A stretch of 32,000 nt of DNA from Candidatus Electrothrix sp. GW3-4 (GCF_037902255.1 NZ_CP147990.1:1200001-1232000), one strand, 5' to 3'; counted from the first letter of the stretch, positions 3,473 through 25,157 are shown. The notes: generated by a model from the sequence alone, not told the origin. Translations and numbers: made by a program.

Positions 3473-3572
3473 AATAGCAGTATTTCTTTTTTTGTTTACT
3501 TTCTTGAATAATTTTGGATAATAAATATGGGTGCTGAAGGAATAAAAGGAAGTATAGTGGAAGGATGAAAGA

Positions 3573-6569: not shown

Positions 6570-6644
6570 CGTCCAATATGAAGTATGAGGTATGGGGGAG
6601 ATGGGCCCCGCAAGGTGAAACGCCTTGTACAGGGCATGAACCTG

Positions 6645-6670
6645 CTAAGACACTAAGACACTAAGACACT
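6645..6670. repeat. Tandem 8-bp repeat (ctaagaca x3 plus partial)
   Basis: ctaagacactaagacactaagacact read directly, about 75 nt downstream of the kinase stop. Confidence 0.9.
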
Positions 6671-7192
6671 TGCCGAAGAATTGTAAATATCCGGGGCGGA
6701 AGCGTGAAAAGACGAGATACACACCTCATTACGGTATACTTCTGCGTAAGAAGTATCTAATTCTCAGGTGAAAAGAGGGTAAAAAATATCTATCTTCTTG
6801 GAAATAATAAGAATTCCCAATAGATTGAATGCGTTGTTTTTAATGACACAATAGTATCTTGCCAGGAGTAACTATATAATTGGTATGGATTTTGTATATG
6901 AAACGCTAGTAAACGATGATGTTGCACGTTACTGAGCATGTCCTGCTTTTCGGCTTCTGGTTGTTTTATATGAAAGTACCGGGTATCTCTTTGGATTCGG
7001 GAGATCGACTTTCATGCCTTGTTGTCCCTCCCCAGAGGGGAGGGATGAGGGCTTTATTAAAACCTCGCAGGATTAACCGTAAAAGTTGACAAAGCCACAG
7101 TCACCGTGAGGTGATGTCGGAAAACTGCGGGTCTCCATAGGGGAGATAGCCGAGTTACCTGCTTTTTAAAGTTATTGCTGGAGGAAGATGTT

Positions 7193-7312
7193 GTGACAAT
7201 GTGTATAAGAGTACTGAAAAAGGGATTGATTAACCTGACTATTCCCCTGAAAAAGGGCTTGATTGGATTGGCAATGCTTTTCCTTTCTGCTGCATTCGTC
7301 TTGCCGGAATAG
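7193..7312 (+). CDS. Candidate small membrane protein (about 37-39 aa) with internal LKKGLI duplication
   Basis: Below the track threshold. GGAGGAAG at 7180-7187, then GTG 7193 / ATG 7199: (V)TMCIRVLKKGLINLTIPLKKGLIGLAMLFLSAAFVLPE*, stop TAG 7310-7312. Hydrophobic C-terminal segment. Followed by an intrinsic terminator at 7368-7402. Contains the 18-bp direct repeat 7214-7231 / 7247-7264 (17/18). Confidence 0.35.
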   Translation: MTMCIRVLKKGLINLTIPLKKGLIGLAMLFLSAAFVLPE

Positions 7313-7367
7313 TGATCTGAGTGATTTGTGTAATCTGAGCTCTGTTGCTCAACCTGAGAGATGTTTT

Positions 7368-7402
7368 GCCGGGCGCGTTCTTTTACGTTGCCCGGTTTTT
7401 TT
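7368..7402 (+). terminator. Rho-independent terminator
   Basis: ccgggc (7369-7374) pairs with gcccgg (7390-7395), and inner cgt/acg also pair. Followed by T7 (7396-7402). Confidence 0.6.
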
Positions 7403-7454
7403 GCTTTACCAGGGCTTAGCCCTGCCCCAAGAGAAATATTCGGCGTAAAAAAAT

Positions 7455-8021
7455 ATGAAAAAAATCTTTCTGCTTCTCTTAACGGCGTATTTATTGACAG
7501 GCTGTGCCGTGGTCACTTCAGAAAATATCATCGGCAGCGCAGCGGTTCAGCTTTCCCCGGAAGCCTGGAACGGGATTTGGCGAAATGAAGATACGGTACT
7601 GCAGCTCAAGGTTGTTGATGCGGACAAGGGCCTTGTTAACATCGCCTGGTTTGAAGACAAAGACAACGAGTTGCAACCCGATTCAATAGCAGTACAGATC
7701 AGCAAGGGAGAGAAATGGGAGTACCTTACCCTTGTTACCGGTTCGCTCTATAATGATCTTGAATTGGAAAAGTATTGCTGGGGAAGAATCGAAAAGGAGG
7801 GAGAGCGTATCCTGTTTTGGCTGCCCAATCCAGAACGATTCGAGCGTGCTGTTCAATCCAAGACGCTGAAAGGAAACGTCATTAAGATAAAGAAAGAAAA
7901 GTATCCGAGCACGCATGTCAAACTGACCGGATCAGCACAGGAAATTATAAAGCAGGTAGAGTCTGGCGGAGCTGATTATTTCCTCTGGGATACTCCGCTG
8001 ACGTTTATCAGGATTGACTGA
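7455..8021 (+). CDS. Lipoprotein, function unknown
   Basis: 188-aa ORF. Signal peptide with lipobox MKKIFLLLLTAYLLTGC. Confidence 0.75.
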   Translation: MKKIFLLLLTAYLLTGCAVVTSENIIGSAAVQLSPEAWNGIWRNEDTVLQLKVVDADKGLVNIAWFEDKDNELQPDSIAVQISKGEKWEYLTLVTGSLYNDLELEKYCWGRIEKEGERILFWLPNPERFERAVQSKTLKGNVIKIKKEKYPSTHVKLTGSAQEIIKQVESGGADYFLWDTPLTFIRID

Positions 8022-8067
8022 ATAACTGAACAACTGGCGCTCAATGTACAGGGCCTGAATCCCCAGA

Positions 8068-8799
8068 TTATTCACTGAAATCGCAGACCAAGGGGGTGTG
8101 GTCTGAGAGGATAACATCGGGTATGAAAAAGTCTTTTACTGTGAGTTCAGGGCTGTAGAGAATAAAATCCAGCTGACGTTTCGGTGAGCGGCTGGGATGA
8201 GAGGGGGAACCTTGGTCATTGGCACTCCGCAGATGCGTTGCTGCAAGGAAAAGGGCAAGCTCCTGGTCACCCCAGAAGACGTTAAAATCTCCAGCCACAA
8301 TGACAGGTCCCTGCGTTGTTGTGACTATCTCATATAGCTGCTGAAGTTGACTTTGTCGGTTGTAATAGGTGAGGGAGAGGTGGACAAGAAAGACCGTGAG
8401 ATTTGCTGTCGTTGCTTCAATGACAAGCTGTTTGATGCCTGTTCGAAAGAAATGAAACTGATGATCAATGATTTTTTCCTTACTCAGGAGGGCATTTCCC
8501 TGCTGAGCAAGTACAGGGACGCGCCGGGGCAGGGAGCCGGAGCGGTATTTTGATTCAACGATATGATGATATCCTAAGCTGCGGGCCAGGGACTCGGCCT
8601 GGCAGCAGTTTCCTGTCCGAAAAGAGCCGGAATCCACTTCCACCAAAGCGACAATATCAGGGGCGAGTCTGGTAATAAACTCTGTGATCTGCCGGTAATT
8701 TTCTATTGAGCGTTTCAGGTACCCGGCATAGGGAACCGGAAAATGGAATTGGCTGCCGATGCCAGCTCCGTAGCGGATATTATAGAGTAAAAAACGCAA
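8068..8799 (-). CDS. Endonuclease/exonuclease/phosphatase (EEP) family protein
   Basis: 243-aa ORF. EEP-type motif order: LLYNIRYG, IVALVEVD, VFLVHLS, VIVAGDFN, LSDHTPL. Starts 2 nt after the pcnB stop, so probably the same operon. Confidence 0.8.
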   Translation of the reverse strand: MRFLLYNIRYGAGIGSQFHFPVPYAGYLKRSIENYRQITEFITRLAPDIVALVEVDSGSFRTGNCCQAESLARSLGYHHIVESKYRSGSLPRRVPVLAQQGNALLSKEKIIDHQFHFFRTGIKQLVIEATTANLTVFLVHLSLTYYNRQSQLQQLYEIVTTTQGPVIVAGDFNVFWGDQELALFLAATHLRSANDQGSPSHPSRSPKRQLDFILYSPELTVKDFFIPDVILSDHTPLVCDFSE

Positions 8800-11642: not shown

Positions 11643-12899
11643 TTGAAAATTAAGGCCATTAACGGAGTAAAAGATATTCTGTCGGATGAGATTGTTTTCT
11701 GGCAAAAAATCGAAAAGAGAGCTCGTGATATTTTTCGCCGTTTCGGCGTTCATGAAATTCGTCTGCCTCTTTTGGAAAAGACTGAGCTCTTTACCCGTTC
11801 CATCGGTGAGGCCACGGATATTGTTGAAAAGGAGATGTATACCTTTATTGACCAGGGTATTACCATGCGGCCGGAGATCACCGCCTCCTTATTGCGTGCC
11901 TATGTTGAGCACGGCCTCCATGTGCGGCAGCCAGTGCAGCGCCTGTTCAGTATTGGGCCTGTGTTTCGTCACGAACGGCCCCAGATGGGGCGACAGCGTC
12001 AGTTTCACCAGGTGGATGTGGAGATTATCGGGGCCCAGGAGCCTGAGGTTGATGCCGAGTTGATGGCAATGGGACAGATGTTCCTTAATGAGCTGAACCT
12101 GGAGGTGAGCCTTGAGATAAACTCCCTCGGTTGTCCAGAGTGCCGTCCTGCGTTCCGAAAAAAATTGATTGCCTATCTCCAGGAGCGGAGTGAAACCCTC
12201 TGCGATGATTGTAAACGACGGACCGAGAAAAATCCGCTCAGGGCATTGGATTGTAAGCAGCAGGGATGCAAAGCAGCTGTAGAGAATGCGCCCTCTATTC
12301 TGGATAATCTCTGTTCTGGTTGTGAAGAACATTTTATCGGAGTGCAGGCGCAATTAGACCGGCTTGGGGTGGCCTATACCTTGAACCGTTTCATGGTGCG
12401 TGGGCTGGATTATTATAATCGTACCGCCTTTGAATTTTTGACCACAGATCTCGGTGCGCAGGCTGCTGTGGCCGCAGGTGGACGCTATGATGGCTTGGTA
12501 GAGGAACTGGGTGGCCCGAAAAAGACCCCAGGCATTGGCTTTGCAATGGGCATGGAGCGGTTATGTCTCCTGATGCAGCAGCAGGAAGGAGAACAGGAAG
12601 AACTGGGTGGCGCAGATATTTTTGTTGCCGCCCTTGGCGAGCAGGCAATCCAGTTTGCCTCGCCCCTGGTTCACCAACTCCGTCAACGCGGTTTGCAGGC
12701 AGCAATGGATTACAGTAATCGCAGCCTCAAGGCGCAGATGAAACAGGCCGGGCGTCTCAATGCAGGCTTTACCCTGATTATTGGTGAGCAGGAGCTGGAA
12801 CAGGGCAAGGGCATCTTGCGGAATATGAATACCCAGGAGCAGAGTGAGTTTTCTCTGCAGGCTGGAGCTGATGAGCTGGCAAAGTTGGTTGCGGGCTGA
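11643..12899 (+). CDS. hisS: Histidine--tRNA ligase
   Basis: 418-aa ORF. TTG start 6 nt after GAGGAG. Class II aaRS motifs (FRHERPQMGRQRQFHQ, GGGRYDGL) and an anticodon-binding C-terminal domain. Confidence 0.93.
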   Translation: MKIKAINGVKDILSDEIVFWQKIEKRARDIFRRFGVHEIRLPLLEKTELFTRSIGEATDIVEKEMYTFIDQGITMRPEITASLLRAYVEHGLHVRQPVQRLFSIGPVFRHERPQMGRQRQFHQVDVEIIGAQEPEVDAELMAMGQMFLNELNLEVSLEINSLGCPECRPAFRKKLIAYLQERSETLCDDCKRRTEKNPLRALDCKQQGCKAAVENAPSILDNLCSGCEEHFIGVQAQLDRLGVAYTLNRFMVRGLDYYNRTAFEFLTTDLGAQAAVAAGGRYDGLVEELGGPKKTPGIGFAMGMERLCLLMQQQEGEQEELGGADIFVAALGEQAIQFASPLVHQLRQRGLQAAMDYSNRSLKAQMKQAGRLNAGFTLIIGEQELEQGKGILRNMNTQEQSEFSLQAGADELAKLVAG

Positions 12900-13034
12900 T
12901 TTGGAATTTTGAGAAATTTTTGACGGTAGGGGCAGGCCTCTGTGTCTGTCCTGGATTAATATATAATTGGCCCGGAAAGTTCCGGGCAATCACAGGGGAT
13001 TGCCCCTACAATTTTCTGCATCAAGAGAAACATA

Positions 13035-14828
13035 ATGGAATCAATGGGAGCGCTGCGGCGCACACATGACTGTAATACCCTCGGCCTGGACAACCTGGAT
13101 CAGGAAGTCGTCCTCATGGGCTGGGTTCTTCGTCGCCGTGACCACGGCGGGGTTATTTTTATCGACCTGCGCGACCGCTACGGCATCACCCAGGTTGTTT
13201 TTAATCCTGAGATCAACCCGGACGTGCATGCCAAGGCGCATCAACTGCGCTCTGAGTGGGTACTGGCTGTTAAGGGAAAGGTGGAAAGGCGCCCTGGTGA
13301 TATGGCGAACCCTAAGCTGCAGACCGGTGAAATTGAGATCCTGGTCAGTGAGTTGCGTATCCTGAATACCAGCAAGACCCCGCCTTTTCCCCTGGATGAG
13401 GACAGTGAGGTCTCGGATAATATCCGCCTTCAGTACCGCTACATGGATCTCCGTCGTCCTGAAATCGCGAACAATCTGATTATGCGCCATAAGGCGGCCC
13501 AGACGGTGCGTAATTATCTCACGGATAATGATTTCCTGGAGATTGAGACCCCCATGCTCACCCGCTCCACCCCGGAAGGGGCGCGAGATTATCTGGTGCC
13601 CAGCCGGGTGAATGCGGGCAAATTTTATGCGCTGCCGCAGTCTCCGCAGCTTTTTAAGCAGATGCTGATGATTGCTGGTATGGAGCGCTATTTTCAGATC
13701 GTCAAATGTTTCCGTGATGAAGACCTGCGGGCCGACCGTCAGCCGGAATTCACCCAAATCGATATGGAGCTCAGCTTTGTTGGTGAGGATGATATCATTG
13801 CAATCAGCGAGGGCATGGTCAAGGCCGTATTTAAGGCGACTCGGGATATAGATCTGGAACCGCCTTTTCGGCGGATGAAATATGACGAGGCTGTGGCCCG
13901 CTTTGGCACAGATCGTCCGGATACCCGCTTTGGTCTGGAGCTGACCGACCTGACTGAGACCCTGCGTGGTTGCGGCTTCAAGGTCTTTAACTCCATTATT
14001 GACAAGGGCGGGGCGGTCAAGGCGATCAATGCCAAGGGTTGCGGAACGTTCTCTCGTAAGGATCTGGACGATCTGACCAATTTTGCAGGTACCTTCGGGG
14101 CCAAGGGCATGGCCTGGATCAAGATCAAAGAAGATGAGTGGCAGTCGCCCATTACCAAGTTTTTTAACGAGGACGAACTGGCCGCTATGGGCAAGGCCCT
14201 GGAGGCTGAGCCGGGCGACCTGATCCTCTTTGGTGCGGACGACGCAGCCACGGTCAATCAGGTTCTGGCCGAACTGCGCCTGGAGCTGGCCCGTCGGCTT
14301 GATCTCCTGGATGAGAACACCTTTGATTTCCTTTGGATCACCGATTTCCCCTTAGTGGAGTATGATGCCGACCGGAAACGCTATTCCTCAGTGCATCATC
14401 CTTTTACTGCTCCTTTTGAAGAGCATCTTGATATGCTGGAAAGCGATCCGGGTAAGGTCAAGAGTCGGGCCTACGACCTGGTCCTGAACGGGAATGAGAT
14501 TGGTGGTGGTTCTATCCGTATCCATGATCCGCAGGTGCAGGAACGGGTGCTCAAGGTGCTGGGGATTGATGCGAAAGAGGCTGAGGATAAATTTGGTTTC
14601 CTGCTCAATGCTCTGGAGTACGGCGCACCGCCCCACGGCGGTATTGCCTTTGGTGTGGATCGCCTGCTGATGATTCTGACCGGTTCCAGCTCCATCCGGG
14701 ACGTGATCGCCTTTCCTAAGACCCAGAAGGCTACCTGTCCGCTCACCGAAGCACCTTCTTCGGTGGCCCGGAAGCAGCTTACCGAGTTGCATTTGCGGCC
14801 TGATTGGAAAGAGGAGAAGAAAGAGTAG
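13035..14828 (+). CDS. aspS: Aspartate--tRNA ligase
   Basis: 597-aa ORF. OB-fold N-terminus, [33 protein letters not shown] (motif 3). Confidence 0.95.
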   Translation: MESMGALRRTHDCNTLGLDNLDQEVVLMGWVLRRRDHGGVIFIDLRDRYGITQVVFNPEINPDVHAKAHQLRSEWVLAVKGKVERRPGDMANPKLQTGEIEILVSELRILNTSKTPPFPLDEDSEVSDNIRLQYRYMDLRRPEIANNLIMRHKAAQTVRNYLTDNDFLEIETPMLTRSTPEGARDYLVPSRVNAGKFYALPQSPQLFKQMLMIAGMERYFQIVKCFRDEDLRADRQPEFTQIDMELSFVGEDDIIAISEGMVKAVFKATRDIDLEPPFRRMKYDEAVARFGTDRPDTRFGLELTDLTETLRGCGFKVFNSIIDKGGAVKAINAKGCGTFSRKDLDDLTNFAGTFGAKGMAWIKIKEDEWQSPITKFFNEDELAAMGKALEAEPGDLILFGADDAATVNQVLAELRLELARRLDLLDENTFDFLWITDFPLVEYDADRKRYSSVHHPFTAPFEEHLDMLESDPGKVKSRAYDLVLNGNEIGGGSIRIHDPQVQERVLKVLGIDAKEAEDKFGFLLNALEYGAPPHGGIAFGVDRLLMILTGSSSIRDVIAFPKTQKATCPLTEAPSSVARKQLTELHLRPDWKEEKKE

Positions 14829-14854
14829 CCTGACTTTACCGATCCCGCCTGCTG

Positions 14855-14892
14855 ATCCCGGTTTCCAACACTGCTTGGGCCGGGATTTTTTT
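14855..14892 (+). terminator. aspS rho-independent terminator
   Basis: atcccgg (14855-14861) pairs with ccgggat (14880-14886), followed by a T-run. Confidence 0.7.
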
Positions 14893-14960
14893 GCTTTTTT
14901 TGTTACTCTTTTCTCTTTACAGAGTAAGTACTTAGTACAAGATCCTCCAACGCCCGTATA

Positions 14961-16565
14961 TTGACACCCTTTTTTTCGACAACGAGGAGCATTCCCCTGA
15001 AACTAATAATTAATAATTTGCGCATTCCTCTTGAAAAAGATGGGATGGATGAATATGTACATGCTGCTTCCAAAAAGATGGGAATAGGCGAAGGACTATC
15101 CATTTTAAAATTTTTGAGTAAATCTCTGGATTTAAGAAATCAAAATCAATTCTATTACATAGTCTCATTTGTTGTCAGCGTCAGTGACAGCTATGAAAAC
15201 AAGCAAAATTTCCCCAAATATAGAGAACAAATACAAGAAACCAGGAAGGCAGCAAGCAGTAAGGCTAACCCTATCATTGTTGGTTTTGGACCTGCTGGAA
15301 TATTTGCGGCGCTTGAACTTATAGCTTGTGGGCATAAACCTTTAATCTTCGAACGAGGTGAAAAGTTAGAGAAGCGCTCGATTGATGTTCAAAAATTTAT
15401 ACAAGAAAGGGTGTTACATCCTGAATCAAATATTCAATTTGGCGAAGGCGGTGCCGGTTCATACTCAGACGGCAAATTGTTCTCCCGGAGAAATAATAAT
15501 AAAAGCTCTACAAATAGGGTATTGAAAACCTTTGTTCAATTTGGTGCGCCCGATAAAATCGAGTACATCAGCAAGCCACATTTGGGAACGGATGTGTTGT
15601 GCAAAATAGTTCGTAATATGAGACGCTATATTCTTGATAGAGGAGGTGAAATACATTACGGCTCAAAAATGACGGACATCTTGATATCAGAGGGTAAGGC
15701 CTCAGGTGTTATAATAAATGGCGAGAAGGAATATCATTCCTCTCGCATCTATATTGCTTTGGGACATTCTGCACGCGATACAGTTGAGATGATGCATGAA
15801 AAAGGTGTTGCTCTTGAGCAGAGGCCACTTTCTGTTGGTGTGAGAATTGAGCATCCTGTCGAGACTGTAAACCTTATGCGATATGGTGCAAAATATCATA
15901 ACTTTAAAGGATTAGGCGCTGCCACCTATTCTTTGAATTATACGAACCGAAAAATTAAAAGAGGGGTTTATACATTCTGCATGTGCCCTGGAGGTGAGGT
16001 CGTTAATGCTTCATCCGAGCAAGGCATGTTGGTTTTAAACGGCATGAGCTACTCACGACGATCATCACCATTTTCAAATGCAGCGCTGGTTGTAAGATGT
16101 CATACCGACGATTATACATCAACCAGTCCATTGGCTGGCATAAAGTTCCAAAAAGACATTGAGCGAAAGGCCTTTAACGAAGGAGGGAAAAACTGGAAAG
16201 TCCCTGCCCAAAATTTGGTGAATTTTTTAGGAGAGAAGAGCTCTGCTGACTTACATGAAAACTCGTATAAGATGGGAGCCGTTCCTGCTGATATGAAGGA
16301 CATCTTTCCTGGATTTGTGATTGATCAACTGTTGGCGGCATTTAATAAATGGAAAGAAGAAGTACCCTTATTTATTTCAAATCAGGCGATATTATTAGGT
16401 GCGGAAACAAGAACGTCATCTCCTGTACGGATGAAACGCAATGACAACTTTGAATCAGTAAATATAAAAAATTTGTATCCAATAGGCGAAGGTTCAGGTT
16501 ATACAAGCGGAATAACGAGTTCTGCCGCTGATGCTATAAGGGCTGTCGAACTCCACGAATTGTAA
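14961..16565 (+). CDS. FAD-dependent oxidoreductase (COG2509-like NAD(FAD)-utilizing dehydrogenase)
   Basis: 534-aa ORF. Dinucleotide-binding IIVGFGPAGIFAALEL; GEGGAGSYSDGKL; C-terminal GEGSGYTSGITSSAADA. The true start may be CTG 14997, 7 nt after GAGGAG (MKLIINNLRIPLEKD). Visibly AT-rich versus aspS. Confidence 0.8.
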   Translation: MTPFFSTTRSIPLKLIINNLRIPLEKDGMDEYVHAASKKMGIGEGLSILKFLSKSLDLRNQNQFYYIVSFVVSVSDSYENKQNFPKYREQIQETRKAASSKANPIIVGFGPAGIFAALELIACGHKPLIFERGEKLEKRSIDVQKFIQERVLHPESNIQFGEGGAGSYSDGKLFSRRNNNKSSTNRVLKTFVQFGAPDKIEYISKPHLGTDVLCKIVRNMRRYILDRGGEIHYGSKMTDILISEGKASGVIINGEKEYHSSRIYIALGHSARDTVEMMHEKGVALEQRPLSVGVRIEHPVETVNLMRYGAKYHNFKGLGAATYSLNYTNRKIKRGVYTFCMCPGGEVVNASSEQGMLVLNGMSYSRRSSPFSNAALVVRCHTDDYTSTSPLAGIKFQKDIERKAFNEGGKNWKVPAQNLVNFLGEKSSADLHENSYKMGAVPADMKDIFPGFVIDQLLAAFNKWKEEVPLFISNQAILLGAETRTSSPVRMKRNDNFESVNIKNLYPIGEGSGYTSGITSSAADAIRAVELHEL

Positions 16566-16583
16566 GAAATTGAAGAGAGAAAA

Positions 16584-17060
16584 ATGAAAATACGTAAGCT
16601 TACTCCAGAAAATTTTGGCAAAGCCTATGCATTATTGCGTCAGGCGTTTCCTCGTAGCACATATGAAAGACAGTTAGCTGAAAAATTCCACAAGAATGGA
16701 AGGGGCGTTCATGAATGGGTGTGTATTCACTGCAATACAGTAATTGCCTATATTGCTTTTTCTCATGCCTATAACGGCTCTGACATCTGCGGCTTGCATT
16801 TGGGGCCGATGGCTGTAAAATCGGATTTTCAAAAGCAAGGGGTAGGCTCAGAGTTGCTTTGTTTTGCCTTGAGGCAGCCTGAAATAAAGGATAAAACCAT
16901 TTTTGTCTTGGGTGAGCCGAATTTTTATAAGAAATTTGGGTTTGAACTTTGTGCAGCACCAATTTGCCCATTTGACAAAAACAATACCCATTTTCTGGGT
17001 ATACGCAACAACTCAAATAACCAGTTCACTGTTGGATATGAATCTGAGTTTTATAAATGA
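16584..17060 (+). CDS. GNAT-family N-acetyltransferase
   Basis: 158-aa ORF. Acetyl-CoA pocket motif [11 protein letters not shown] followed by FYKKFGF. Confidence 0.7.
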
Positions 17061-17070
17061 TTTATTCGCA

Positions 17071-17280
17071 GCATTATATTCCGGGGCACCGCCCCACGGC
17101 GGTATTGCCTTTGGTGTGGATCGGCTGATGATGATACTGACCGGCTCTGATTCCATCCGGGATGTGATTGCCTTCCCTAAGACTCAGAAGGCTACCTGTC
17201 CGCTTACTGAGGCCCCGGCTTCGGTTGCCAGGAAGCAACTCACAGAGCTGCATCTTCGACCGGATTGGAAAGAAGATTAA
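17071..17280 (+). pseudogene. Displaced copy 2 of the aspS 3' end (last ~68 codons)
   Basis: Encodes ..[69 protein letters not shown]. Compare aspS ..[72 protein letters not shown]. No upstream aspS body. Starts immediately after the GNAT stop. Confidence 0.9.
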
Positions 17281-17454
17281 GCTGCACAACCTGTCTTTGT
17301 GCCTCCCGATTCCGGTGTCCTTGCCGGGGTCGGGAGAGATTACTTGTTGAATTCCGTAGTGGTAAATATTCAACCATTTTTTGCTGGGTTACGCAAGTTG
17401 TTGATTTACCTGCTCGTAATTTGTATTATTGCTTGACAACTACAGGAGAAGATA

Positions 17455-17937
17455 ATGAAGATTTTTTGGATGGTAACCTTTACCTGTTTTCTATTTGTTA
17501 CCTCTTTAACCACAAAAGGATATGCTCAGGATACAGATAAATCGTTATGGAAAGCTCAAGTTAAACAATTTATAGAAGACAGGACGGATATTGCAAACAA
17601 ACTTGAATCATGTGAAGTTTACGACAAGAAAATTAGAGACCCTTTTATTAATATTTTTATTGATAGAGACGCTGATAGTTTTATTTACATACGTATAAAA
17701 GGTATTATTGACGACAGATGTGTGTATGCTGAAGAATTTATAGGTAATATGCAATTTGAGTGTAAATATTCTGAGGAACAACGAAAAGCAGTAGCTTCTT
17801 ATTATAGAAAGTTGATGAAACAATATTCAAAACAGCTTGCGAAAGATGGCTCTGTGACTTTAGAGTACGATGCTAATAATCCGATGAATATTTATATGAA
17901 TGATGGAACTTGTTCAATTTCGCTCGTTAACAAATAA
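17455..17937 (+). CDS. Secreted Cys-containing protein, function unknown
   Basis: 160-aa ORF. GGAG 7 nt upstream of the ATG. Signal peptide MKIFWMVTFTCFLFVTSLTTKGYAQ. AT-rich. Confidence 0.6.
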   Translation: MKIFWMVTFTCFLFVTSLTTKGYAQDTDKSLWKAQVKQFIEDRTDIANKLESCEVYDKKIRDPFINIFIDRDADSFIYIRIKGIIDDRCVYAEEFIGNMQFECKYSEEQRKAVASYYRKLMKQYSKQLAKDGSVTLEYDANNPMNIYMNDGTCSISLVNK

Positions 17938-18004
17938 GCACTTGTTTACAGGTGGTATTGAATAGATAAGATTATTTTCCTGATATTGCTTGTTGTGATA
18001 CTGT

Positions 18005-18135
18005 GATCCATCCAGGGCGTGATTGCCTTCCCTAAGACCCAGAAGGCCACTTGCCCGCTCACCGAGGCTCCGGCTTCGGTGGCCAGAAAGCAGCTTACTG
18101 AGCTGCATCTCCGACCGGACTGGAAAGAGGATTAA
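18005..18135 (+). pseudogene. Displaced copy 3 of the aspS 3' end (last 38 codons intact, 5' part decayed)
   Basis: From 18019 it encodes [38 protein letters not shown], stop at 18133-18135. Upstream homology (gatccatccaggg; tgatactg at 17994-18001) carries indels relative to copies 1 and 2. Confidence 0.9.
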
Positions 18136-18156
18136 GCCTCACTCTCGCCTTTATGC

Positions 18157-18200
18157 CTCCCGGTTCCGGTGTTCATGCCGAGACCGGGAGAGTTTCTTTC
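18157..18200 (+). terminator. Terminator-like hairpin homologous to the one after aspS copy 2
   Basis: ctcccgg (18157-18163) pairs with ccgggag (18184-18190), then the T-rich stretch agtttctttcttt. The homologous hairpin at 17303-17336 uses ctcccga/tcgggag. Confidence 0.5.
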
Positions 18201-18345
18201 TTTGCCGCCGCTCTTGAACTCTTCCTTCCAGAAAGGAAAATATTAGATTTTACAGACGGAACAGGATAGACTGAATATATCGGTCAGATAGCATTTTTTT
18301 AGCGGAAGAATTTTTGTATTCCACACTGTAGTGAGGAGGAAAAGC

Positions 18346-18591
18346 ATGATTGCTGTTATGGAGAAACTCGTTGAAATGGCATCCAGATTCCCTGAAGAAG
18401 AGCAGGAAGTCATGGCACGGTACTGGCTGCAGGAGCTGACTACGCCGAACTTTATAGAAAAAATTAAGGATGAACTCAAGTGGGAGAAATCTTTTGCCGA
18501 ATCCCATGATCTTCTTGAGGCGATGGCGGACAAGGCTTTGCAAGAAGCCGGGCAAGGCCGGGCGGAAAAAATGGGTTGGGACGAATTGTGA
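18346..18591 (+). CDS. Antitoxin-like protein (partner of RelE/ParE-type toxin)
   Basis: ATG 18346 follows GAGGAGG (the track starts at 18331). Acidic 81-aa protein MIAVMEKLVEMASRFPEEEQ...WEKSFAESHDLLEAMADKALQEAGQGRAEKMGWDEL. Its stop overlaps the toxin GTG (GTGA). Confidence 0.55.
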   Translation: MIAVMEKLVEMASRFPEEEQEVMARYWLQELTTPNFIEKIKDELKWEKSFAESHDLLEAMADKALQEAGQGRAEKMGWDEL

Positions 18592-18866
18592 TTTCTCGTA
18601 TTCTGCCGAGTTTCAGGAAAGATTTTCGGCGGCTGCCCAAGGAAGTTCAGCGTCAGGCCAAAAAAGTCTATCGGATATGGAAACAGAATCCTTTTGACAG
18701 GCAGCTCCGCTTCAAACAGATTCATCCGACTAAACCGGTGTATTCCGTTCGGATCACACTGAATTGGCGTGCGCTCGGTATCCGGGAAAGCAAAGATACG
18801 ATTATTTGGTTCTGGATCGGCTCGCATGAAGAGTATAACAAGCTGATCGGGCAGATGAAAAAATAA
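18588..18866 (+). CDS. RelE/ParE-superfamily toxin
   Basis: GTG 18588 overlaps the antitoxin stop. FRKDFRRLPKEVQRQAKKVYRIWKQNPFD...YSVRITLNWRALGIRESKDTIIWFWIGSHEEYNKLI matches the RelE/ParE small-toxin pattern. Confidence 0.65.
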   Translation: MISRILPSFRKDFRRLPKEVQRQAKKVYRIWKQNPFDRQLRFKQIHPTKPVYSVRITLNWRALGIRESKDTIIWFWIGSHEEYNKLIGQMKK

Positions 18867-18877
18867 AGCGGAAGATC

Positions 18878-20407
18878 ATGCAAAAGCTACCCATAGGTAT
18901 TCAAACCTTCACCAAAATCCGTGAAGAAGAATACCACTACGTCGATAAAACAAAAATTGCCTTTGAGCTGATCAACAACGGTAACTACTATTTTCTCTCC
19001 AGACCACGCCGCTTCGGCAAGAGCCTTTTTCTCTCCACCTTACAGGCTGTGTTCGAGGGCCGGAAAGAGCTGTTTCACGGCCTGTATATCTCTGACATCT
19101 GGGATTGGCAGACAACCTATCCGGTCGTCAAAATCAGTTTTGCCGGAGTGGCCCGCAATGTTGCTGCCATGCAGCAGGATATCAGGAATATCCTCAAGGA
19201 TAACCAAGAGCGCCTGAACATTGACTGCCTGCACGAAGAAGATACAGGCGGGTGCTTGCGGGAGTTGATCAGGAAGTCATTTGAGAAATATCAGCAGAAA
19301 GTTGTTATCCTTGTGGATGAGTACGACAAGCTGATCCTTGATAATTTGGATCAGCTGGAGGTCGCGCAGGAGGCAAGGGAAATCCTCAAAGACCTGTACG
19401 CAACCATCAAGGACTGCGACGAGTATATCAAATTCGCCTTTTTTACCGGCGTCAGTAAATTTGCCAAGGTCTCTGTGTTCAGCGGCCTGAACAACCTTTC
19501 GGATATCTCCCTTGACAGCCGTTACGCCACGATCTGCGGCTATACCCAGGATGATCTGGTAACCGTTTTTGCCGACCTCCTGCGAGACGCTGATATGGAA
19601 CGGGTGCGGGACTGGTACAACGGCTATAATTTTCTCGGAGAAAAAGTTTATAATCCCTTTGATATCCTGCTCTTCATCGATAAGGGACTCATTTTTAATA
19701 ATTATTGGTTCGAGACCGGCACGCCGACCTTTTTACTGAAGCTTATCCGGCAGAACAATTATTTCCTCCCCCGTCTTTCCGACCTGCGGGTTGACAGCTC
19801 TCTGCTCGACGGTTTTGATATCGACCATATCAGGCTGGAACCTGTCCTGTTTCAGGCCGGTTATCTGACGATCAAAGAAGTTCATGAATTGGAGTTCGGA
19901 GGGTTTGAATATACCCTGCACTATCCGAACCGGGAGGTCGCTCTTTCTTTTAATGACGCGCTTATCCGCTTTCTGACGGACGCGACAACATACACGCCCA
20001 CCAAGACCGGCCTGTTTTCCGCTTTAAAATCCGGGGATGTCGAAGCATTGAAAGATGTGCTTGTTTCCCTGTTCGCCTCGATTCCCTATAATAATTATGT
20101 CAAAAACACCCTTGCCGAGTATGAGGGCTACTATGCCAGTGTGATTTATGCCTATCTCGCAAGCCTAGGTATCCGCATCATTGCAGAGGATGTGACCAAT
20201 ATCGGGCGTATTGACTTAACGCTTTTTCTGGGTGATAACATATATATTGTCGAATTTAAAGTTGATGGCAATGCTGATCCCCTTGAGCAGATTAAAGAAC
20301 GAAAGTATGCGCAGAAGTACGCAGGTCAGGGGACTGTGTATTTGGTTGGTATTCTCTTCAGTAGTACAAAGAAGAATATTGAGACGTTTTCTTGGGAAAG
20401 GGTATGA
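18878..20407 (+). CDS. AAA-ATPase_like N-terminal domain / PD-(D/E)XK (PDDEXK_9-type) C-terminal domain protein
   Basis: 509-aa ORF. Characteristic N-terminus MQKLPIGIQTFTKIREEEYHYVDKTKIAFELINNGNYYFLSRPRRFGKSLFLSTL. Walker B-like VILVDEYDK. C-terminal nuclease-like GRIDLTLFLGDNIYIVEFK. Confidence 0.8.
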   Translation: MQKLPIGIQTFTKIREEEYHYVDKTKIAFELINNGNYYFLSRPRRFGKSLFLSTLQAVFEGRKELFHGLYISDIWDWQTTYPVVKISFAGVARNVAAMQQDIRNILKDNQERLNIDCLHEEDTGGCLRELIRKSFEKYQQKVVILVDEYDKLILDNLDQLEVAQEAREILKDLYATIKDCDEYIKFAFFTGVSKFAKVSVFSGLNNLSDISLDSRYATICGYTQDDLVTVFADLLRDADMERVRDWYNGYNFLGEKVYNPFDILLFIDKGLIFNNYWFETGTPTFLLKLIRQNNYFLPRLSDLRVDSSLLDGFDIDHIRLEPVLFQAGYLTIKEVHELEFGGFEYTLHYPNREVALSFNDALIRFLTDATTYTPTKTGLFSALKSGDVEALKDVLVSLFASIPYNNYVKNTLAEYEGYYASVIYAYLASLGIRIIAEDVTNIGRIDLTLFLGDNIYIVEFKVDGNADPLEQIKERKYAQKYAGQGTVYLVGILFSSTKKNIETFSWERV

Positions 20408-20458
20408 TGGGCAGTGTTTCTTCGCCGTTGGGATGTGATTGTCTTCTTTCTGGTTTTC

Positions 20459-20590
20459 GATAACAAATGATTTGATTTTGTTATCAAACAGTTCTATTTG
20501 CTTATCTAAATATTTGATGAGCAGATCAAATTGCTGGATGAGCAGATCAAATTTTTTGATCTTTTTATCTAAATTTTAGATAAGCTCATC
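20459..20590. repeat. Nested palindromes plus 17-bp direct repeats (iteron/operator-like block)
   Basis: Hairpin gataacaaa/tttgttatc (20459-20485). Perfect direct repeat gatgagcagatcaaatt at 20516-20532 and 20537-20553 (21-bp period). Composite palindrome 20537-20590: gatgagc [agatcaaa..tttgatct] [ttatctaaa..tttagataa] gctcatc. A third ttatctaaa lies at 20502-20510. Confidence 0.8.
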
Positions 20591-20794
20591 TAATTTTTGG
20601 ATGGGGTTGTTGAGGCTGACCGTCTGAATTCTATTGACACTCCTTCCTTCTGAGGTTTAATTTAAAGGTTGTTATTCTGACATATCATATGTTGCCTTTT
20701 CTGAAGAGAAAAGCAGCTACCTTGCATATGCTGTATCAAACAATATAAAGGAAAGTTTCCAAAAAAAATAATCTGCTCTTACAGAGAAAAAAAT

Positions 20795-21178
20795 ATGAAC
20801 AATGAACTAATAGAGATTTTTATTGATTTAGCAACAAGTACACCAGAAGATGCGATAAATCAAAACGAGCTTTTTTATATATATGAAGAATTAGAATCAA
20901 AAGGGGCATGTTTGATACCTCTTGAGTCAGCTATTTTGCCAAATTATAATCAAAAATCTGGTTCAGGGGATATAGATATATTAATAGGTGCAATACATAT
21001 TGCTCTACCTGCAAGTGCTGTTGTTGCAGTATTAGTTTCTTTTGTGAAAAAATATTTTGATACATGCAAATCAAAACGGTTAAGGATAAAACGAAAAGAT
21101 GGAAGCATAGTCGAGATTTCAGGTTATAATGGAAAGGAAACAGAGAAAATATTGCATAAACTAATAAACTATAAATAG
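20795..21178 (+). CDS. Small single-pass membrane protein, possible effector-associated constant component (EACC1-like)
   Basis: 127-aa ORF. Acidic N-terminal region, hydrophobic helix ILIGAIHIALPASAVVAVLVSFV, basic juxtamembrane KSKRLRIKRK, short C-terminal DGSIVEISGYNGKETEKILHKL. Ends 14 nt before the caspase-like gene. Very AT-rich. The family assignment is recollection only. Confidence 0.5.
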   Translation: MNNELIEIFIDLATSTPEDAINQNELFYIYEELESKGACLIPLESAILPNYNQKSGSGDIDILIGAIHIALPASAVVAVLVSFVKKYFDTCKSKRLRIKRKDGSIVEISGYNGKETEKILHKLINYK

Positions 21179-21194
21179 TTCTTTTGTAAACAAA

Positions 21195-22460
21195 ATGGCA
21201 CTCAATAGTAAAAACTGGGTAATTTCTATAGGAGTTAATGATTCAAGAGATCATGAAAGCCTAAAGTGTCCGCATTTTGATGCTGGAGATGTGTTTAGTA
21301 TCATATCTAAAAATTGGAAATGTGATTCACAAAATAAAATATTATTAACAGGGAATCAAGCTACAACAAAAAATATTAATATCATTCTTAATGAGGTATT
21401 AATGAGAATGGCAGATGAAAATGATCGTATATTTATTTATCTGTCTGGACATGTTAATACGAATGTACGCTCAGTTACCGGTTCTTTTGTGAGCTATGAT
21501 TATTGTAAAGAAAAACGGAATTTTGGGCTGAATTTACGGTCATTAAGGTACATTGTCGAAGACTCAAGAGCCAAATATATTATAGTAGTAATAGACGGAT
21601 GTTCTTCAGGTGTAATCGCACAAGGAAATAAAAATAATACACCGCATTGGTTTTATTTCACTACAGGTGAAATGGATTCAGAGGCAAGTACAAAGCTTTT
21701 TATTACAGCAGTTTCCTCTGGAAAACATGCTTATGAACACGAAGATAAAAGAAACTCTGAGTTCACAAGAATACTGGTAGATACGATATCTCCTTTTATA
21801 AAAAGAAAAGAGAGTCTCAGTACGACCCTATTTTATGAATTTTTAGTTAAAAAATCGAAGAAATATAATATGTATCCTGTAAAATCTGGAGTGGAAATTG
21901 GATACACTAATTTTATTGAAAGCAATCATCAGGATAATGTTATATTGTCAGATGATAATAAACCTTATATCCCGAAATGGATAGAAGGTCTTTTTGATAA
22001 TTGTAAAAACAATAGTACTGTTAATAACAAAGATAAGTCTGTTTTCGTAAGAGATAATAACTTTGCAGATGGTTCAAGGTTAACAATCGGACAGATAATA
22101 AAAAAATCTTGGCGCATTCGTAATGCAGGTAATGTTAGTTGGAAAAGTCGTTTTTTGAAAATGATTGGGCAATCCAGAGGAACTGGACGTATTCATTGCA
22201 ATAATATAATTCCAATACCTGATGCTGAACCGAACCAAGAGATTGATATTGAGATTGAATTAAGAATGCCACCTTATCCATGTTCAGTATATGCAGAATT
22301 CAAAATGACAGATTCATCTGGAAATATTTTATTTCCAAACCAAAGAGGACTTTATGTAACTTTTGACGTTATTGATCCAGCTAGCCAGAATGAGTACGTT
22401 TTATCTTCTTCAGATAGAGAACTCGTGAGTCGCGAGTTTTCACTTCGCTTTAAAATATAA
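21195..22460 (+). CDS. Caspase-like (peptidase C14 fold) protease with C-terminal NBR1-type Ig (FW) domain
   Basis: 421-aa ORF. WVISIGVNDS, catalytic-His context FIYLSGHV (His86, nt 21450-21452), catalytic-Cys context IIVVIDGCSSG (Cys136). The C-terminal ~120 aa match the N_BRCA1_IG/NBR1 FW pattern: FVRDNNFADGSRLTIGQIIKKSWRIRNAGNVSW...PNQEIDIEIELRMPPYPCSVYAEFKMTDSSGNILFPNQRGLYVTFDVI. Confidence 0.75.
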   Translation: MALNSKNWVISIGVNDSRDHESLKCPHFDAGDVFSIISKNWKCDSQNKILLTGNQATTKNINIILNEVLMRMADENDRIFIYLSGHVNTNVRSVTGSFVSYDYCKEKRNFGLNLRSLRYIVEDSRAKYIIVVIDGCSSGVIAQGNKNNTPHWFYFTTGEMDSEASTKLFITAVSSGKHAYEHEDKRNSEFTRILVDTISPFIKRKESLSTTLFYEFLVKKSKKYNMYPVKSGVEIGYTNFIESNHQDNVILSDDNKPYIPKWIEGLFDNCKNNSTVNNKDKSVFVRDNNFADGSRLTIGQIIKKSWRIRNAGNVSWKSRFLKMIGQSRGTGRIHCNNIIPIPDAEPNQEIDIEIELRMPPYPCSVYAEFKMTDSSGNILFPNQRGLYVTFDVIDPASQNEYVLSSSDRELVSREFSLRFKI

Positions 22461-22554
22461 AAAGTACAAAAATAGGAAGACTTCTCTAAAGAGAAAATAT
22501 AAAAGAGCATACAAACTGTAAATGTCTACCAAACATTTAATCTTCACGATGAAG

Positions 22555-23980
22555 GAGTTTGTATGCTCACATATCTATATGACTCACTATACGGTTTTCG
22601 TAAAGTATTTTCCCGTCACCGCACCTGGTTAATCTTTGTGATGATAGTTTTGGGGTTCATCGGTAGCAGCGAAATGACAGGAGTTTCTTCCTTCTGCCGT
22701 TTTTGGCTGATAGACAATCAAGGGTACTCTAAGTTACTGGGACTTTTTCGTTCTTCAGCCTGGGAATTAAGTGGCTTGCTGGAATACTGGTCTGTTTTTG
22801 CTGTCTACCAACAACAGTCTGTTTTTTCGCAAGGTCGACTGGTTACACTGGGAGACCATACATATGTCCCCAAGGAAGGTCGCCGAATGCCCGGTGTTGT
22901 AACTTTACGCCAAGACTCTGAAACACAAAGCAAACCCTCGTATTTCAGAGGTCAGTGCTGGGGAGGCCTGGCTTTGGCCGTTGGCAGTTTGACAAATCCT
23001 TTGGCCATTGATTTTGCTCTTCAAACGAACCAGGGTGTTCTCTTGGTTCTGGATGCTTTTTTTTCTGTAGGTCCGGTGTTTCTGCTGGCCCAGGCAACCT
23101 GGCTGACGTCAATTGAAGCTCCTGCTGTTCATATTATTACAAAGGCAAAGAAGAATTATGTCGCATACTTACAGGCAGATCCATCTCGTTACATTGGGAT
23201 CGGTCGTCCCTGTAAGTATGGAGAGCATATTCATCTGATGGAAGTTTTTGACCATCTCCACCTGTTTCAAAAAGTATCGGTCCGTATCTACGGACATATG
23301 GAGAAAATTTATATTTTCCACCTGGATTTATTATGGAAATCTACTCAAGGGCCGCTTCGTTTTGTTTTTGCCAAAACGTCACGTGGCCCCATTGTTCTTA
23401 TGTGCAGTAACCTCGACCAGGACCCGATTGCTGCAATCGAACTCTATTGTCTCAGAACCCGCATAGAAACCATGTTCGATATGCTGAAAAATGTTCTCCA
23501 TATCTTCCAATGTCACTTCTGGTCGAAAAAAATGCCGAAACATTCGAGGAAACCCAAAAGCAATAAAAATCAAAAGGCTCCACAGGCAGAAAACCAAAAA
23601 ACGGTTCAAGCTTGCTGGGATGCTACTGAACGTTTTGTTAACCTTGGAGCAATTTCCCTTGGTTTGCTTCAGTTAATCGCCCTCAAATTTCCAGAAGAAA
23701 TATGGAGCAGATTTGAAGGATTCTTGCGGACCCGTTCTCGGGATATTCCTTCTGAAAGAACTGTTAAAATGGTGATTGCAAATTTGTTGGTACAGAATTT
23801 TCTCAAAGTCGAGCCAACAGCGACAATGCGAGAAATTCGTGCCAAAATTCTCAAGGGCGAATTCAAGAAAAAATTTCCTCAAACTGAACACCCCGTTAAT
23901 CAACGGGCAGCTTGAAAATTCATAGTCTTAAGCAAAATTGATTGATACGGCTGTTTCATCATGTGGAGCAGTACAAACTC
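22555..23980 (+). mobile_element. IS4-superfamily insertion sequence (about 1.43 kb)
   Basis: Imperfect terminal inverted repeats: gagtttgtatgctcacat (22555-22572) versus the reverse complement of 23961-23980, gagtttgtactgctccacat (18 matches, two 1-nt indels). Single transposase ORF inside. Composition differs from the AT-rich DNA on both sides. No target-site duplication identified. Confidence 0.6.
22563..23915 (+). CDS. DDE transposase, IS4-like (YREK signature)
   Basis: 450-aa ORF. LGDHTYVPKEG (D1), LVLDAFF (D2), YCLRTRIETMFDMLK, which fits Y-x2-R-x3-E-x6-K exactly. Confidence 0.85.
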   Translation: MLTYLYDSLYGFRKVFSRHRTWLIFVMIVLGFIGSSEMTGVSSFCRFWLIDNQGYSKLLGLFRSSAWELSGLLEYWSVFAVYQQQSVFSQGRLVTLGDHTYVPKEGRRMPGVVTLRQDSETQSKPSYFRGQCWGGLALAVGSLTNPLAIDFALQTNQGVLLVLDAFFSVGPVFLLAQATWLTSIEAPAVHIITKAKKNYVAYLQADPSRYIGIGRPCKYGEHIHLMEVFDHLHLFQKVSVRIYGHMEKIYIFHLDLLWKSTQGPLRFVFAKTSRGPIVLMCSNLDQDPIAAIELYCLRTRIETMFDMLKNVLHIFQCHFWSKKMPKHSRKPKSNKNQKAPQAENQKTVQACWDATERFVNLGAISLGLLQLIALKFPEEIWSRFEGFLRTRSRDIPSERTVKMVIANLLVQNFLKVEPTATMREIRAKILKGEFKKKFPQTEHPVNQRAA

Positions 23981-24279
23981 ACGACTGTCGAGATAGAGAA
24001 GAAAGATGCTTTATAACTAAAGATATATATGGCGATATGTATTCTTCAGAAGTTAAAATTCTGAGTAGCTTTAAAGATAATGTCTTGATAAAAAATAGAA
24101 TATGTAAAGAAGTAGTATCTATTTATTATTCAGATTTTGGCAAGAAAGTAGCAGCTTACATAAAAATATATTTTCCATTCATGATTCCTCTTGTAAGAAA
24201 GTTTTTAAATGGAGTAATTTATTTGATACTTGTTTTTTGGACAAGCAAATCAGGAAGAACAAAATGTATAGATAAATAA
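23938..24279 (+). CDS. Orphan small protein with CFI..YG..V..L..F.D..L......YY motif and hydrophobic C-terminus; possibly truncated
   Basis: 113-aa ORF with a TTG start lying inside or adjacent to the right IS end. CFITKDIYGDMYSSEVKILSSFKDNVLIKNRICKEVVSIYYSDFGKKVAAYI resembles the CFIATAAYGS...LR.FRD..L...YY..SP tail I recall from other bacterial proteins. Followed by the hydrophobic FPFMIPLVRKFLNGVIYLILVFW. Same extreme AT-richness as the caspase module. Confidence 0.4.
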   Translation: MIDTAVSSCGAVQTHDCRDREERCFITKDIYGDMYSSEVKILSSFKDNVLIKNRICKEVVSIYYSDFGKKVAAYIKIYFPFMIPLVRKFLNGVIYLILVFWTSKSGRTKCIDK

Positions 24280-24340
24280 TTATTTGTAAACTTTTTTACA
24301 AATGATTACTGCCCTGAAAATTTCAGCAGGGAGAACCGTC

Positions 24341-24784
24341 ATGCCACAAAACAACCTCACCGAACAAATCGCCCAGCTGCTGGGTGTGGAATTCCCGCCG
24401 TCCCTTGATCCCTCTGCAATAAAATCCCTGCAAAAGGCCCTGCCCGGCTATAAGGCCGTTGCCGACGATGCGGCCCGCTTCTGCCAAAACCACACCGATG
24501 CCCCTAGACTGGATGAAGTCCGCACCTCACTTGAACAGGGTCTTGCCGATGTCGCCCGCCTTGAGCCGGTGGAACACCTGCTGCAACAACTCTACCTTTC
24601 CATCTATCATCAACACCTTCGGGCCACTGCCAAATGTATGGAAGGCCTCTACGACACCACCCGCCGCATCCGTGACTTTGCCGAAGCCTTCCCGGAAATC
24701 AAAGAAGAAGGCCAGCCCCTCCTTGATTTCATGAAGGCCTTCCGCCCTGGTCGGAAAAAGGGAGAATATGATGGCGTCGAATAA
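24341..24784 (+). CDS. Hypothetical protein
   Basis: The track ORF starts at 24302, but ATG 24341 has GGGAGA 6 nt upstream (MPQNNLTEQIAQLLG...). Backbone-like GC content. No motif recognised. Confidence 0.6.
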   Translation: MPQNNLTEQIAQLLGVEFPPSLDPSAIKSLQKALPGYKAVADDAARFCQNHTDAPRLDEVRTSLEQGLADVARLEPVEHLLQQLYLSIYHQHLRATAKCMEGLYDTTRRIRDFAEAFPEIKEEGQPLLDFMKAFRPGRKKGEYDGVE

Positions 24785-24871
24785 AAATTACAGAAAATAA
24801 CTTATTATGGTATCTTTTAGATTGTCAGGTAATCTTGTCTGATAAAAATTGTCACTACAAAGGAGTTGACA

Positions 24872-24988
24872 ATGGGCGATAAGGGCAGCAGAAAAGATAA
24901 GGAAAAAAATAAAAAGCAAGCGACTGATAAGCATAATCAGAAAATCAAAAAAACGAAGGATAATGCACCGCAAAAAGTAGAAAAGTAA
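24872..24988 (+). CDS. Candidate lysine-rich microprotein (38 aa)
   Basis: Below the track threshold. AAGGAG 8 nt upstream of the ATG: MGDKGSRKDKEKNKKQATDKHNQKIKKTKDNAPQKVEK*. Confidence 0.45.
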   Translation: MGDKGSRKDKEKNKKQATDKHNQKIKKTKDNAPQKVEK

Positions 24989-25157
24989 AAAAGAGATTGG
25001 AGCCGGATTTCTGGTTGAAAACCCGGTTGCTGGACACTGGAACTGATTGTTTCAAAATGCATAAAAAACACTCGCAGTCCTGTTGCTTTGATACTGACAG
25101 AGTGATGTATGCCGGAAAAGTGCAAGCCAGAACCATCCTGTAACAATGAAAAAAAGT

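Follow-up and report, generated by a model that had tools for sequence, protein, structure and literature searches.

The chromosome of the cable bacterium Candidatus Electrothrix antwerpensis GW3-4 carries the 3′ end of aspS three times within the stretch analysed here (32,000 nucleotides, GCF_037902255.1 NZ_CP147990.1:1200001-1232000, hereafter the window): an intact, working gene is followed by two displaced gene ends, with one small gene-bearing islet before each of them. We read the three ends, with a probability of about one in two, as a layered record of homology-anchored recombination and not as the attachment (att) sites of a dedicated integrative element. An earlier note on the same DNA, made from the sequence alone, had recognised the three ends and had explained them by serial integration of elements that target the 3′ end of aspS.

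The last 208 nucleotides (nt) of aspS were seen twice more downstream, in the same orientation and in the register 14621-17082-17937 (Table 1), in line with that note. The beginning of copy 2 had to be moved, from 17071 with about 68 codons to 17083 with 65 codons; of the 18 nt before 17083, 8 match, too few for a significant extension of the homology. From about 18005 the left edge of copy 3 shows four altered yet recognisable codons, S-I-Q-G in place of S-I-R-D, and possibly a 9-nt gap after GATACTG, which may hint at an illegitimate joint. The tails are as first described, KEEKKE-stop on copy 1 and KED-stop on copies 2 and 3. The two islets measure 2.2 kb (islet 1) and 0.66 kb (islet 2), and their breakpoints in aspS differ, lying at the equivalent of 14621 for islet 1 and of 14691 for islet 2. 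Upstream, the order pcnB-NMO-hisS-aspS forms a block that is conserved in relatives, and the AspRS of the window, itself not on record, is 95% identical to the homologue P0121, 94% to that of E. aarhusensis and 91% to that of Electrothrix sp. AU1_5.

Divergence among the copies is concentrated at synonymous sites. Copies 2 and 3 differ at 15 of the 114 positions of their 38 shared codons, all third-position and all synonymous, and our recount agreed with the earlier one in this; the resulting dN (nonsynonymous divergence) is 0 and dS (synonymous divergence) ~0.96, and the binomial probability that all 15 would be synonymous is ~6e-10, given that synonymous sites make up 24%. Over the same 38 codons, copies 1 and 2 differ in 20, 18 of them synonymous and two replacements (S/A, E/D), exactly as had been counted, but two replacements is an undercount for the 65 codons that these copies share, where 28 differ, 24 synonymously and four by replacement (L/M, S/D, S/A, E/D). 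The dN/dS calculation that the note had proposed for the three copies gave dS values of 0.8-1.5 and dN values of 0-0.04, and each residue of copy 2 is found in natural AspRS variants. Because divergence is of this synonymous kind, the frames are open, the residues are those of natural AspRS proteins and the changes in the downstream hairpins are compensatory, we conclude that each copy has served as a working terminus, and these sequence features support the view, already taken in the note, that each of them evolved under purifying selection in a different lineage. Copy 1 represents the allele that characterises the present clade of GW3-4. Copy 3, whose flank resembles those of YB6 and Electronema, is probably the most ancient of the resident ends. 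The nearest nucleotide matches to copies 2 and 3 reach only 82-89%, and their donor lineages are therefore unsampled.

Table 1. Features of the aspS region, with positions counted from the first nucleotide of the window.
Feature	Position	Strand	Evidence and remarks
aspS, intact, 597 amino acids	13035-14828	+	Open reading frame; 3′ end of type A, tail KEEKKE-stop
Copy 1, working terminus	14621-14828	+	Closest to the orthologous ends of the nearest Electrothrix, 92-93% nucleotide identity
Type-A intrinsic terminator	14854-14900	+	Hairpin 14854-14887, then U-run; -19.6 kcal/mol, z = -2.6
Islet 1 gene 1, FAD-dependent dehydrogenase (PF21688)	14997-16565	+	Pfam E-value 1e-65; GC ~0.40
Islet 1 gene 2, GNAT acetyltransferase	16584-17060	+	Pfam; with the FAD gene downstream of aspS in L089 and L084
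Copy 2, fossil aspS 3′ end, 65 codons and TAA	17083-17280	+	Reads GAPPHGG...DWKED-stop; chimera
Type-B post-aspS hairpin after copy 2	17295-17348	+	Main stem 17303-17336; -33.1 kcal/mol, z = -4.6
Islet 2 cargo, 160-amino-acid protein, predicted signal peptide	17455-17937	+	Open reading frame; GC ~0.31; no Pfam match
Copy 3, fossil aspS 3′ end	18005-18135	+	38 intact codons 18019-18132, TAA 18133-18135
Native type-B downstream flank	18136-18470	+	Hairpin 18155-18193, U-rich tail, then YB6-collinear sequence

That mis-joined contigs, or a chimera of co-occurring strains, could have produced the triple structure during assembly or polishing is hardly credible. In favour of such an artefact, the GW3-4 genome, which was closed from Nanopore and Illumina reads, came from an enrichment culture and needed special polishing (PMC11247825), and the short-read contigs break only inside a 38-nt run that is identical in copies 1 and 2. 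The copies are, however, 15-18% diverged and thus cannot be collapsed or expanded repeats. Independent Illumina-only contigs match 14633-17115 at 100%, 17094-27932 at 99.95% and 17086-18625 at 99.9%, and so give the arrangements copy 1-FAD-GNAT-junction and copy 2-islet 2-copy 3-flank at 99.9-100%, contradicting the assembly error that the earlier note had listed as a possible refutation. Copy 1, FAD, GNAT and fragment also followed one another in this order in an E. aarhusensis contig that had been assembled independently, as well as in another run.

Homology among the aspS ends continues past the stop codon. The type-A terminator behind copy 1 is common to Electrothrix relatives with or without islet 1 (aligned to L089, L084 and L090), as are the first 146 nt past the aspS stop (to ~14974), which are also found in islet-less relatives. 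Behind copies 2 and 3 the homology goes on for ~65 nt and takes in a strong GC-rich hairpin (17295-17348 versus 18149-18202, 80% identity), the stems of which differ by compensatory changes; Ca. Electronema and strain YB6 have a homologue of this type-B hairpin in its native place after aspS. The islets as first delimited therefore keep their content, FAD plus GNAT genes in one and a secreted-protein gene in the other, but not their limits, since 146 nt after the aspS stop are shared with islet-less relatives and ~65 nt after copy 2 are homologous terminator sequence. In E. aarhusensis the second copy reaches 84 nt beyond the stop codon, and from copy 3 onward the window (18007-18470) aligns with the YB6 locus (L093, 11657-12121) at 82% over 466 nt. 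Since each copy carries a terminator typical of a lineage, what was duplicated looks like a piece of chromosome, gene end plus terminator, rather than a short att core; the flanking homology is that of the ordinary chromosome of a related lineage and extends beyond the gene into its native flank, as is expected of a homology-anchored insert.

To place the structure among relatives, we compared nine cable-bacterium aspS loci (the window and L002, L021, L084 and L089-L093), the closest relatives having been reached by protein search plus exact look-ups, and a wider set of 80 species-representative genome loci and 80 metagenome loci (at least 160, among the matches listed), found with peptide patterns conserved far beyond cable bacteria. 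E. aarhusensis (L089) and another Electrothrix (L084) have aspS-FAD-GNAT and then an aspS fragment, with the same junction as in the window; their fragment is of copy-1 type (EEKKE tail, copy-1-type terminator) and has a common internal deletion of ~100 nt. In Electrothrix sp. AU1_5, E. aestuarii, YB6, two Electronema genomes and a marine Electrothrix clade (L176), aspS has one end only and no islets follow. Collinearity of the YB6 locus with the window covers copy 3, the hairpin behind it and 330 nt more, and YB6 therefore serves as an empty site. Outside cable bacteria, no second same-strand aspS end was present in the 160 loci, among the matches listed; one locus (L035) had a weak reverse-strand match to the aspS end, 6 kb upstream. 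The triple structure is polymorphic and lineage-restricted, and the comparison of related loci that had been suggested, with its empty sites and alternative downstream content, contradicts an ancient fixed structure. One half of the claim that aspS is an integration hotspot stands, in that recombination has a hotspot at the 3′ end of aspS, on the border of a variable, defence-rich region; the other half, that integrative elements are what enters there, is unsupported given the lack of a recombinase, the differing breakpoints and the homology through the terminator.

Duplication of the aspS 3′ end in situ, by tandem duplication or template switching, followed by replacement of the working copy with alleles of other lineages, is improbable in our view, even with allelic or mosaic replacement of aspS demonstrated (see below) and with the working end and the fossil of E. 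aarhusensis both being of type A, terminator included, as duplication in place would produce. The two fossils of the window differ only synonymously and by compensatory hairpin changes, so that at least one of them must have come from, or given way to, another functional allele after the first duplication; moreover, the cargo between the copy pairs is unrelated, and more steps are needed than in the favoured scenario. The statement that the copies are not in-situ duplications thus holds for the two fossils, copies 2 and 3, but does not follow of necessity for copies 1 and 2, where allelic replacement of the working gene would leave the same pattern.

Exchange by homologous recombination was visible at three levels. 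First, the AspRS of E. aestuarii and E. scaldis (P0151 and P0152) matches that of the window at 98-100% identity in residues 1-120 but that of Electronema at 90-100% in residues 240-480, and its last six residues (EEKKE tail) are again those of the window type; these proteins are chimeras, products of intragenic recombination between genera in an essential gene. Second, the first ~37 nt of copy 2, including an unusual GGG glycine codon, are common to the L089 and L084 fragments, whereas near 17120 copy 2 turns to type B (KED-stop) and those fragments stay of the EEKKE type, a switch such as a crossover within the fossil would leave, which makes copy 2 a chimera and shows the fossil at work as a homology arm. 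Third, the window and E. aarhusensis are 78-88% identical in the upstream genes, ~90% in aspS, 95-99% in FAD-GNAT and 80-90% in the flanks. Across the whole genome, GW3-4 and known Ca. Electrothrix species are 77-82% identical (PMC11247825); the FAD-GNAT segment lies above this level, and the islet has therefore passed recently between species.

The main gene of islet 1 fits poorly with accessory cargo. Its product, 100% identical to a Ca. Electrothrix sp. GW3-4 protein, has homologues of 73-80% identity across Desulfobulbales and of 83-94% in other Electrothrix, a gradient like that of AspRS, which parallels the species tree, and in other Electrothrix the gene is located in other contexts. 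By these identities it behaves as a vertically inherited Desulfobulbales gene.

We then weighed decayed integrative elements, that is, cis-mobilizable elements (CIMEs), as defined together with their accretion scheme in PMC5704250. Under this explanation two elements, each with a replacement aspS end in its attP, would have integrated in succession and would have lost integrase and transfer genes while attL and attR were kept; a related integrase from another place in the genome could still move them in trans. We hold it to be somewhat unlikely. An intact gene followed by nested displaced ends, all on the + strand, is what a site-specific element leaves behind and what tandem accretion at a gene 3′ end looks like; the locus is also polymorphic among relatives. 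Pfam scans, which took in all open reading frames of the window of at least 110 amino acids (GW3-4 itself was read within the 32-kb window), showed, as the earlier note had stated, no recombinase in either islet, and no tyrosine, serine or DDE recombinase was found near aspS in the window or beside aspS in the eight other cable-bacterium loci; the sole transposase-like open reading frame (22563-23915, a weak DDE_Tnp_1 match) lies 4.4 kb past copy 3. No integrase-bearing element at aspS appeared in the nine cable-bacterium loci, in the 160 others (among the matches listed) or in viral contigs, and viral contigs scanned with the AspRS C-terminus and with both exact runs shared between copies (see below) gave no aspS-bearing attP. 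Phage and plasmid collections held only full-length aspS, in mislabelled or jumbo-phage records, and the literature yielded no aspS-targeting integrative element. The two islets have two different junctions instead of the common core or crossover position expected of independent insertions by one element, homology continues 65-84 nt past the stop through a host-type terminator, the islets are very small and hold no remnant of element genes, and the FAD gene appears vertically inherited. The view of the islets as decayed or trans-mobilised integrative elements was therefore not upheld: neither recombinase nor attP was found in these searches, the FAD gene behaves as vertical and aspS is mosaic.

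Two other classes of mobile DNA were considered and dropped. For integron cassettes, there is no intI, GTTGAAT at 17346-17352 has no paired inverse core and the hairpins are plain GC-rich terminators; for a Tn7-like element, there are no Tns genes and the repeats are gene ends of 130-200 nt.

Several observations weigh against homology-anchored recombination as we propose it, and some of them are what decayed elements would leave. There are only two founding junctions to go by. Cable bacteria are not known to take up DNA or to be naturally competent. Both islets have a higher AT content than aspS, a common feature of foreign islands. An exact run of 38 nt (14625-14662) is shared by copies 1 and 2 along the left edge of their repeat, and an exact run of 20 nt (17164-17183) by copies 2 and 3 near the left edge of theirs, and such left-edge runs are what a site-specific core would look like. 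Lastly, only 16 of the 31 ssrA islands of Dehalococcoides carry an integration module (PMC3146451); about half lack one, and a missing integrase is therefore compatible with decayed elements. As a recombinase core, the two runs make a weak candidate: the 38-nt run encodes class-II motif 3 and is conserved at 93% even between species, because of which the runs are not clearly beyond conservation, and at 87% identity chance alone should give a run of 20 nt.

Under homology-anchored recombination, the type of original join and the order of events that we infer would be the following. DNA from another cable-bacterium lineage would enter and pair with the resident chromosome through the highly conserved aspS. 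One crossover would be homologous and lie within aspS, and the far end of the incoming DNA would be joined inside the resident aspS 3′ region, either illegitimately, in a homology-facilitated illegitimate recombination (HFIR), or by a single Campbell-type crossover of a circularised fragment. The product would be an intact aspS with the donor 3′ end, the donor terminator and the donor downstream gene or genes, and the resident 3′ end with its terminator would be displaced downstream as a fossil. Such an insertion would have occurred at least twice, with different breakpoints. Thereafter the fossil could serve as the right-hand homology arm, and ordinary double crossovers could pass the islet between species and create chimeric fossils. 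The resulting layered record would sit at the boundary between the core block pcnB-NMO-hisS-aspS and the hypervariable, defence-rich region.

Nothing in the aspS locus demands a new mechanism. Its architecture is known from integrative elements, from which it is set apart by the lack of an integrase, of a common core and of intact relatives in the searches above; functionally it resembles HFIR and the orphan-tip arrays. The elements e14 and phage 21 in the icd 3′ end of Escherichia coli are prophages of 15-40 kb with a tyrosine integrase beside att and a defined core; they resemble the window in their replacement 3′ end, displaced pseudo-end and mostly synonymous differences, and differ from it in that the islets here are of 0.66-2.2 kb and lack a recombinase, with two breakpoints and homology through the terminator. 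HFIR is known as a laboratory phenomenon of natural transformation in Acinetobacter, Streptococcus pneumoniae and Pseudomonas stutzeri, where it usually deletes recipient DNA; it shares with what we propose for the window the homologous anchor, the illegitimate joint, the addition of foreign DNA beside a conserved gene, the independence of an element recombinase and the variable junctions. We know of no description of a joint inside the anchor gene's own 3′ end, with a fossil left behind, as a pattern that recurs in nature, and a literature search on duplication-forming HFIR yielded nothing useful. Orphan toxin-tip arrays of rhs and cdiA probably grow by recombination in the conserved part of the gene. 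As in the window, a full-length gene is there followed by displaced 3′ fragments, each with its own downstream gene; in those arrays, however, the tips are the selected payload (toxin plus immunity), whereas here the tips encode near-identical proteins and the payload consists of unrelated neighbour genes. Accretion of CIMEs with the integrative and conjugative elements (ICEs) ICESt1 and ICESt3 at the fda 3′ end of Streptococcus thermophilus likewise gives tandem integrase-less units bounded by gene ends (PMC5704250), but CIMEs have attL and attR of a known integrase and co-occur with related ICEs or integrative and mobilizable elements, and neither such an integrase nor an intact relative turned up at aspS in the cable-bacterium loci. 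In Dehalococcoides, the ssrA islands (PMC3146451) also occupy a hotspot at a conserved single-copy gene, in tandem and with repeated 3′ fragments; they have a syntenic integration module and one site, in contrast with the window, where junctions differ and where no module was seen in any locus examined.

Displaced gene ends are usually read as the footprint of an integrase, and the aspS case warns against this default: the footprint is statistically solid, yet tests for a site-specific element fail while those for homologous exchange succeed. Annotation pipelines that call a genomic island with att repeats would mislabel the region. If the recombination reading is right, essential-gene ends beside variable regions would be integrase-free entry points in cable bacteria, which would help to explain how defence and accessory genes diversify in these uncultured, clonally filamentous organisms, and the fossils would be a rare internal record of the aspS alleles, hence of the donor lineages, that passed through. 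A broader proposition, which we regard as rather unlikely, is that cable bacteria build and exchange small islets without an element recombinase, a fossil gene end plus terminator serving as a portable homology arm. Were it true, single-gene islets could hop between species by RecA alone, excise through recombination of the working end with the fossil and stack into arrays, the same process might act at other conserved gene ends (the 5′ end of an AAA-ATPase gene and that of the gene at 24302-24784), and the locus would keep a layered record of past alleles.

At those two 5′ ends, duplicated pieces were observed in other cable bacteria. In AU1_5 (L090) an AAA-ATPase 5′ piece of 87-92 nt is present at 12933-13024 and at 14672-14763, upstream of a 521-amino-acid open reading frame, and in Electronema (L002) two 5′ pieces of the homologue of window open reading frame 24302-24784 (12525-12657 and 13386-13518) lie around a HEPN/MNT (nucleotidyltransferase) pair. 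Both sets of pieces begin right at the ribosome-binding site, in a style like that of the aspS fossils, but they are 5′ ends. Such partial duplicates beside inserts at other genes speak for recombination and not for integrative elements. Dispersed direct repeats were enriched in cable-bacterium loci, with 15 in 206 kb versus 2 in 348 kb, about one-third of the 15 being within-gene or other repeated elements.

Within the islets, the start of the FAD gene is probably the conserved CTG at its first position, which is preceded by AGGAG; L089, L084, L083 and L085 all keep this leader (14997-15044), and homologues 522-525 amino acids long extend over it, whereas the public annotation begins 16 codons later at an ATG (506 amino acids). 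For the islet 2 protein, homologues above 50% identity were not found, the protein itself being the only match outside weak domain-level relatives. Islet 1 was interrupted in one relative: L084 (a Logan contig) carries at 2892-3451 a 560-nt insert with a 97-amino-acid open reading frame, placed exactly after the stop codon of FAD and before the ribosome-binding site of GNAT, the overlap at the joint being 3 nt or less, and islet 1 is thus modular in its turn. The boundaries that recur in three comparisons (14968-14974 and 16571) were considered as module edges and rejected, being gene boundaries (5′ leader, stop) with no shared motif. In another Electrothrix contig (L083), direct repeats of 102 nt, 92% identical (1692-1793 and 3474-3575), lie around the FAD gene. 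The right-hand one adjoins a group II intron D1-D4 fragment (3556-3701, minus strand; Rfam RF02005, E-value 5e-26), and a second islet with a long target duplication was dropped as their explanation, since for that reason they are probably intron-derived.

Downstream of aspS, a defence or conflict island occupies 18331-32000, with a SIR2-domain protein gene upstream of aspS (1800-3332). It includes a ParE-like toxin-antitoxin pair, an AAA-ATPase/PD-(D/E)XK protein, EACC1 plus a caspase-like protein with an N_BRCA1_IG domain, the DDE transposase-like open reading frame, a 1192-amino-acid protein without Pfam match and a PstI-type restriction-modification pair. At its beginning, an antitoxin-like open reading frame (18331-18591) shares only its first 50 codons with YB6 (L093, 11982-12131; 86% amino acid identity), where an EndoU-type toxin gene comes after them, another intragenic breakpoint. 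In E. aestuarii, a homologue of the 1192-amino-acid protein is found across the aspS block, inverted (L092, 1291-4881). A tandem array of about six 21-nt units (ATCAAA..TTGATGAGCAG-like) at 20462-20603 also forms a 48-nt imperfect inverted repeat. Its homologue in Ca. Electronema KV (L002, 11847-11971) lies directly 3′ of the aspS terminator, and in the window the ParE-like toxin-antitoxin pair and the AAA-ATPase/PD-(D/E)XK gene stand between copy 3 and the array, which could be iteron-like or code, on the minus strand, for a coiled-coil repeat of 7 amino acids.

On the other side of aspS, a 42-nt direct repeat (3431-3472 and 4303-4344, 90% identical) with a perfect 18-nt palindrome, ATCAGAGCGCGCTCTGAT, flanks an AT-rich hemerythrin-domain open reading frame (3573-4034), and may be a duplicated operator or bound another small insert. 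A close relative (L091) is without the entire 3335-8069 stretch, within which a c-di-GMP-I riboswitch (7084-7162; Rfam RF01051, 54 bits) precedes a gene for a predicted lipoprotein (7455-8021).

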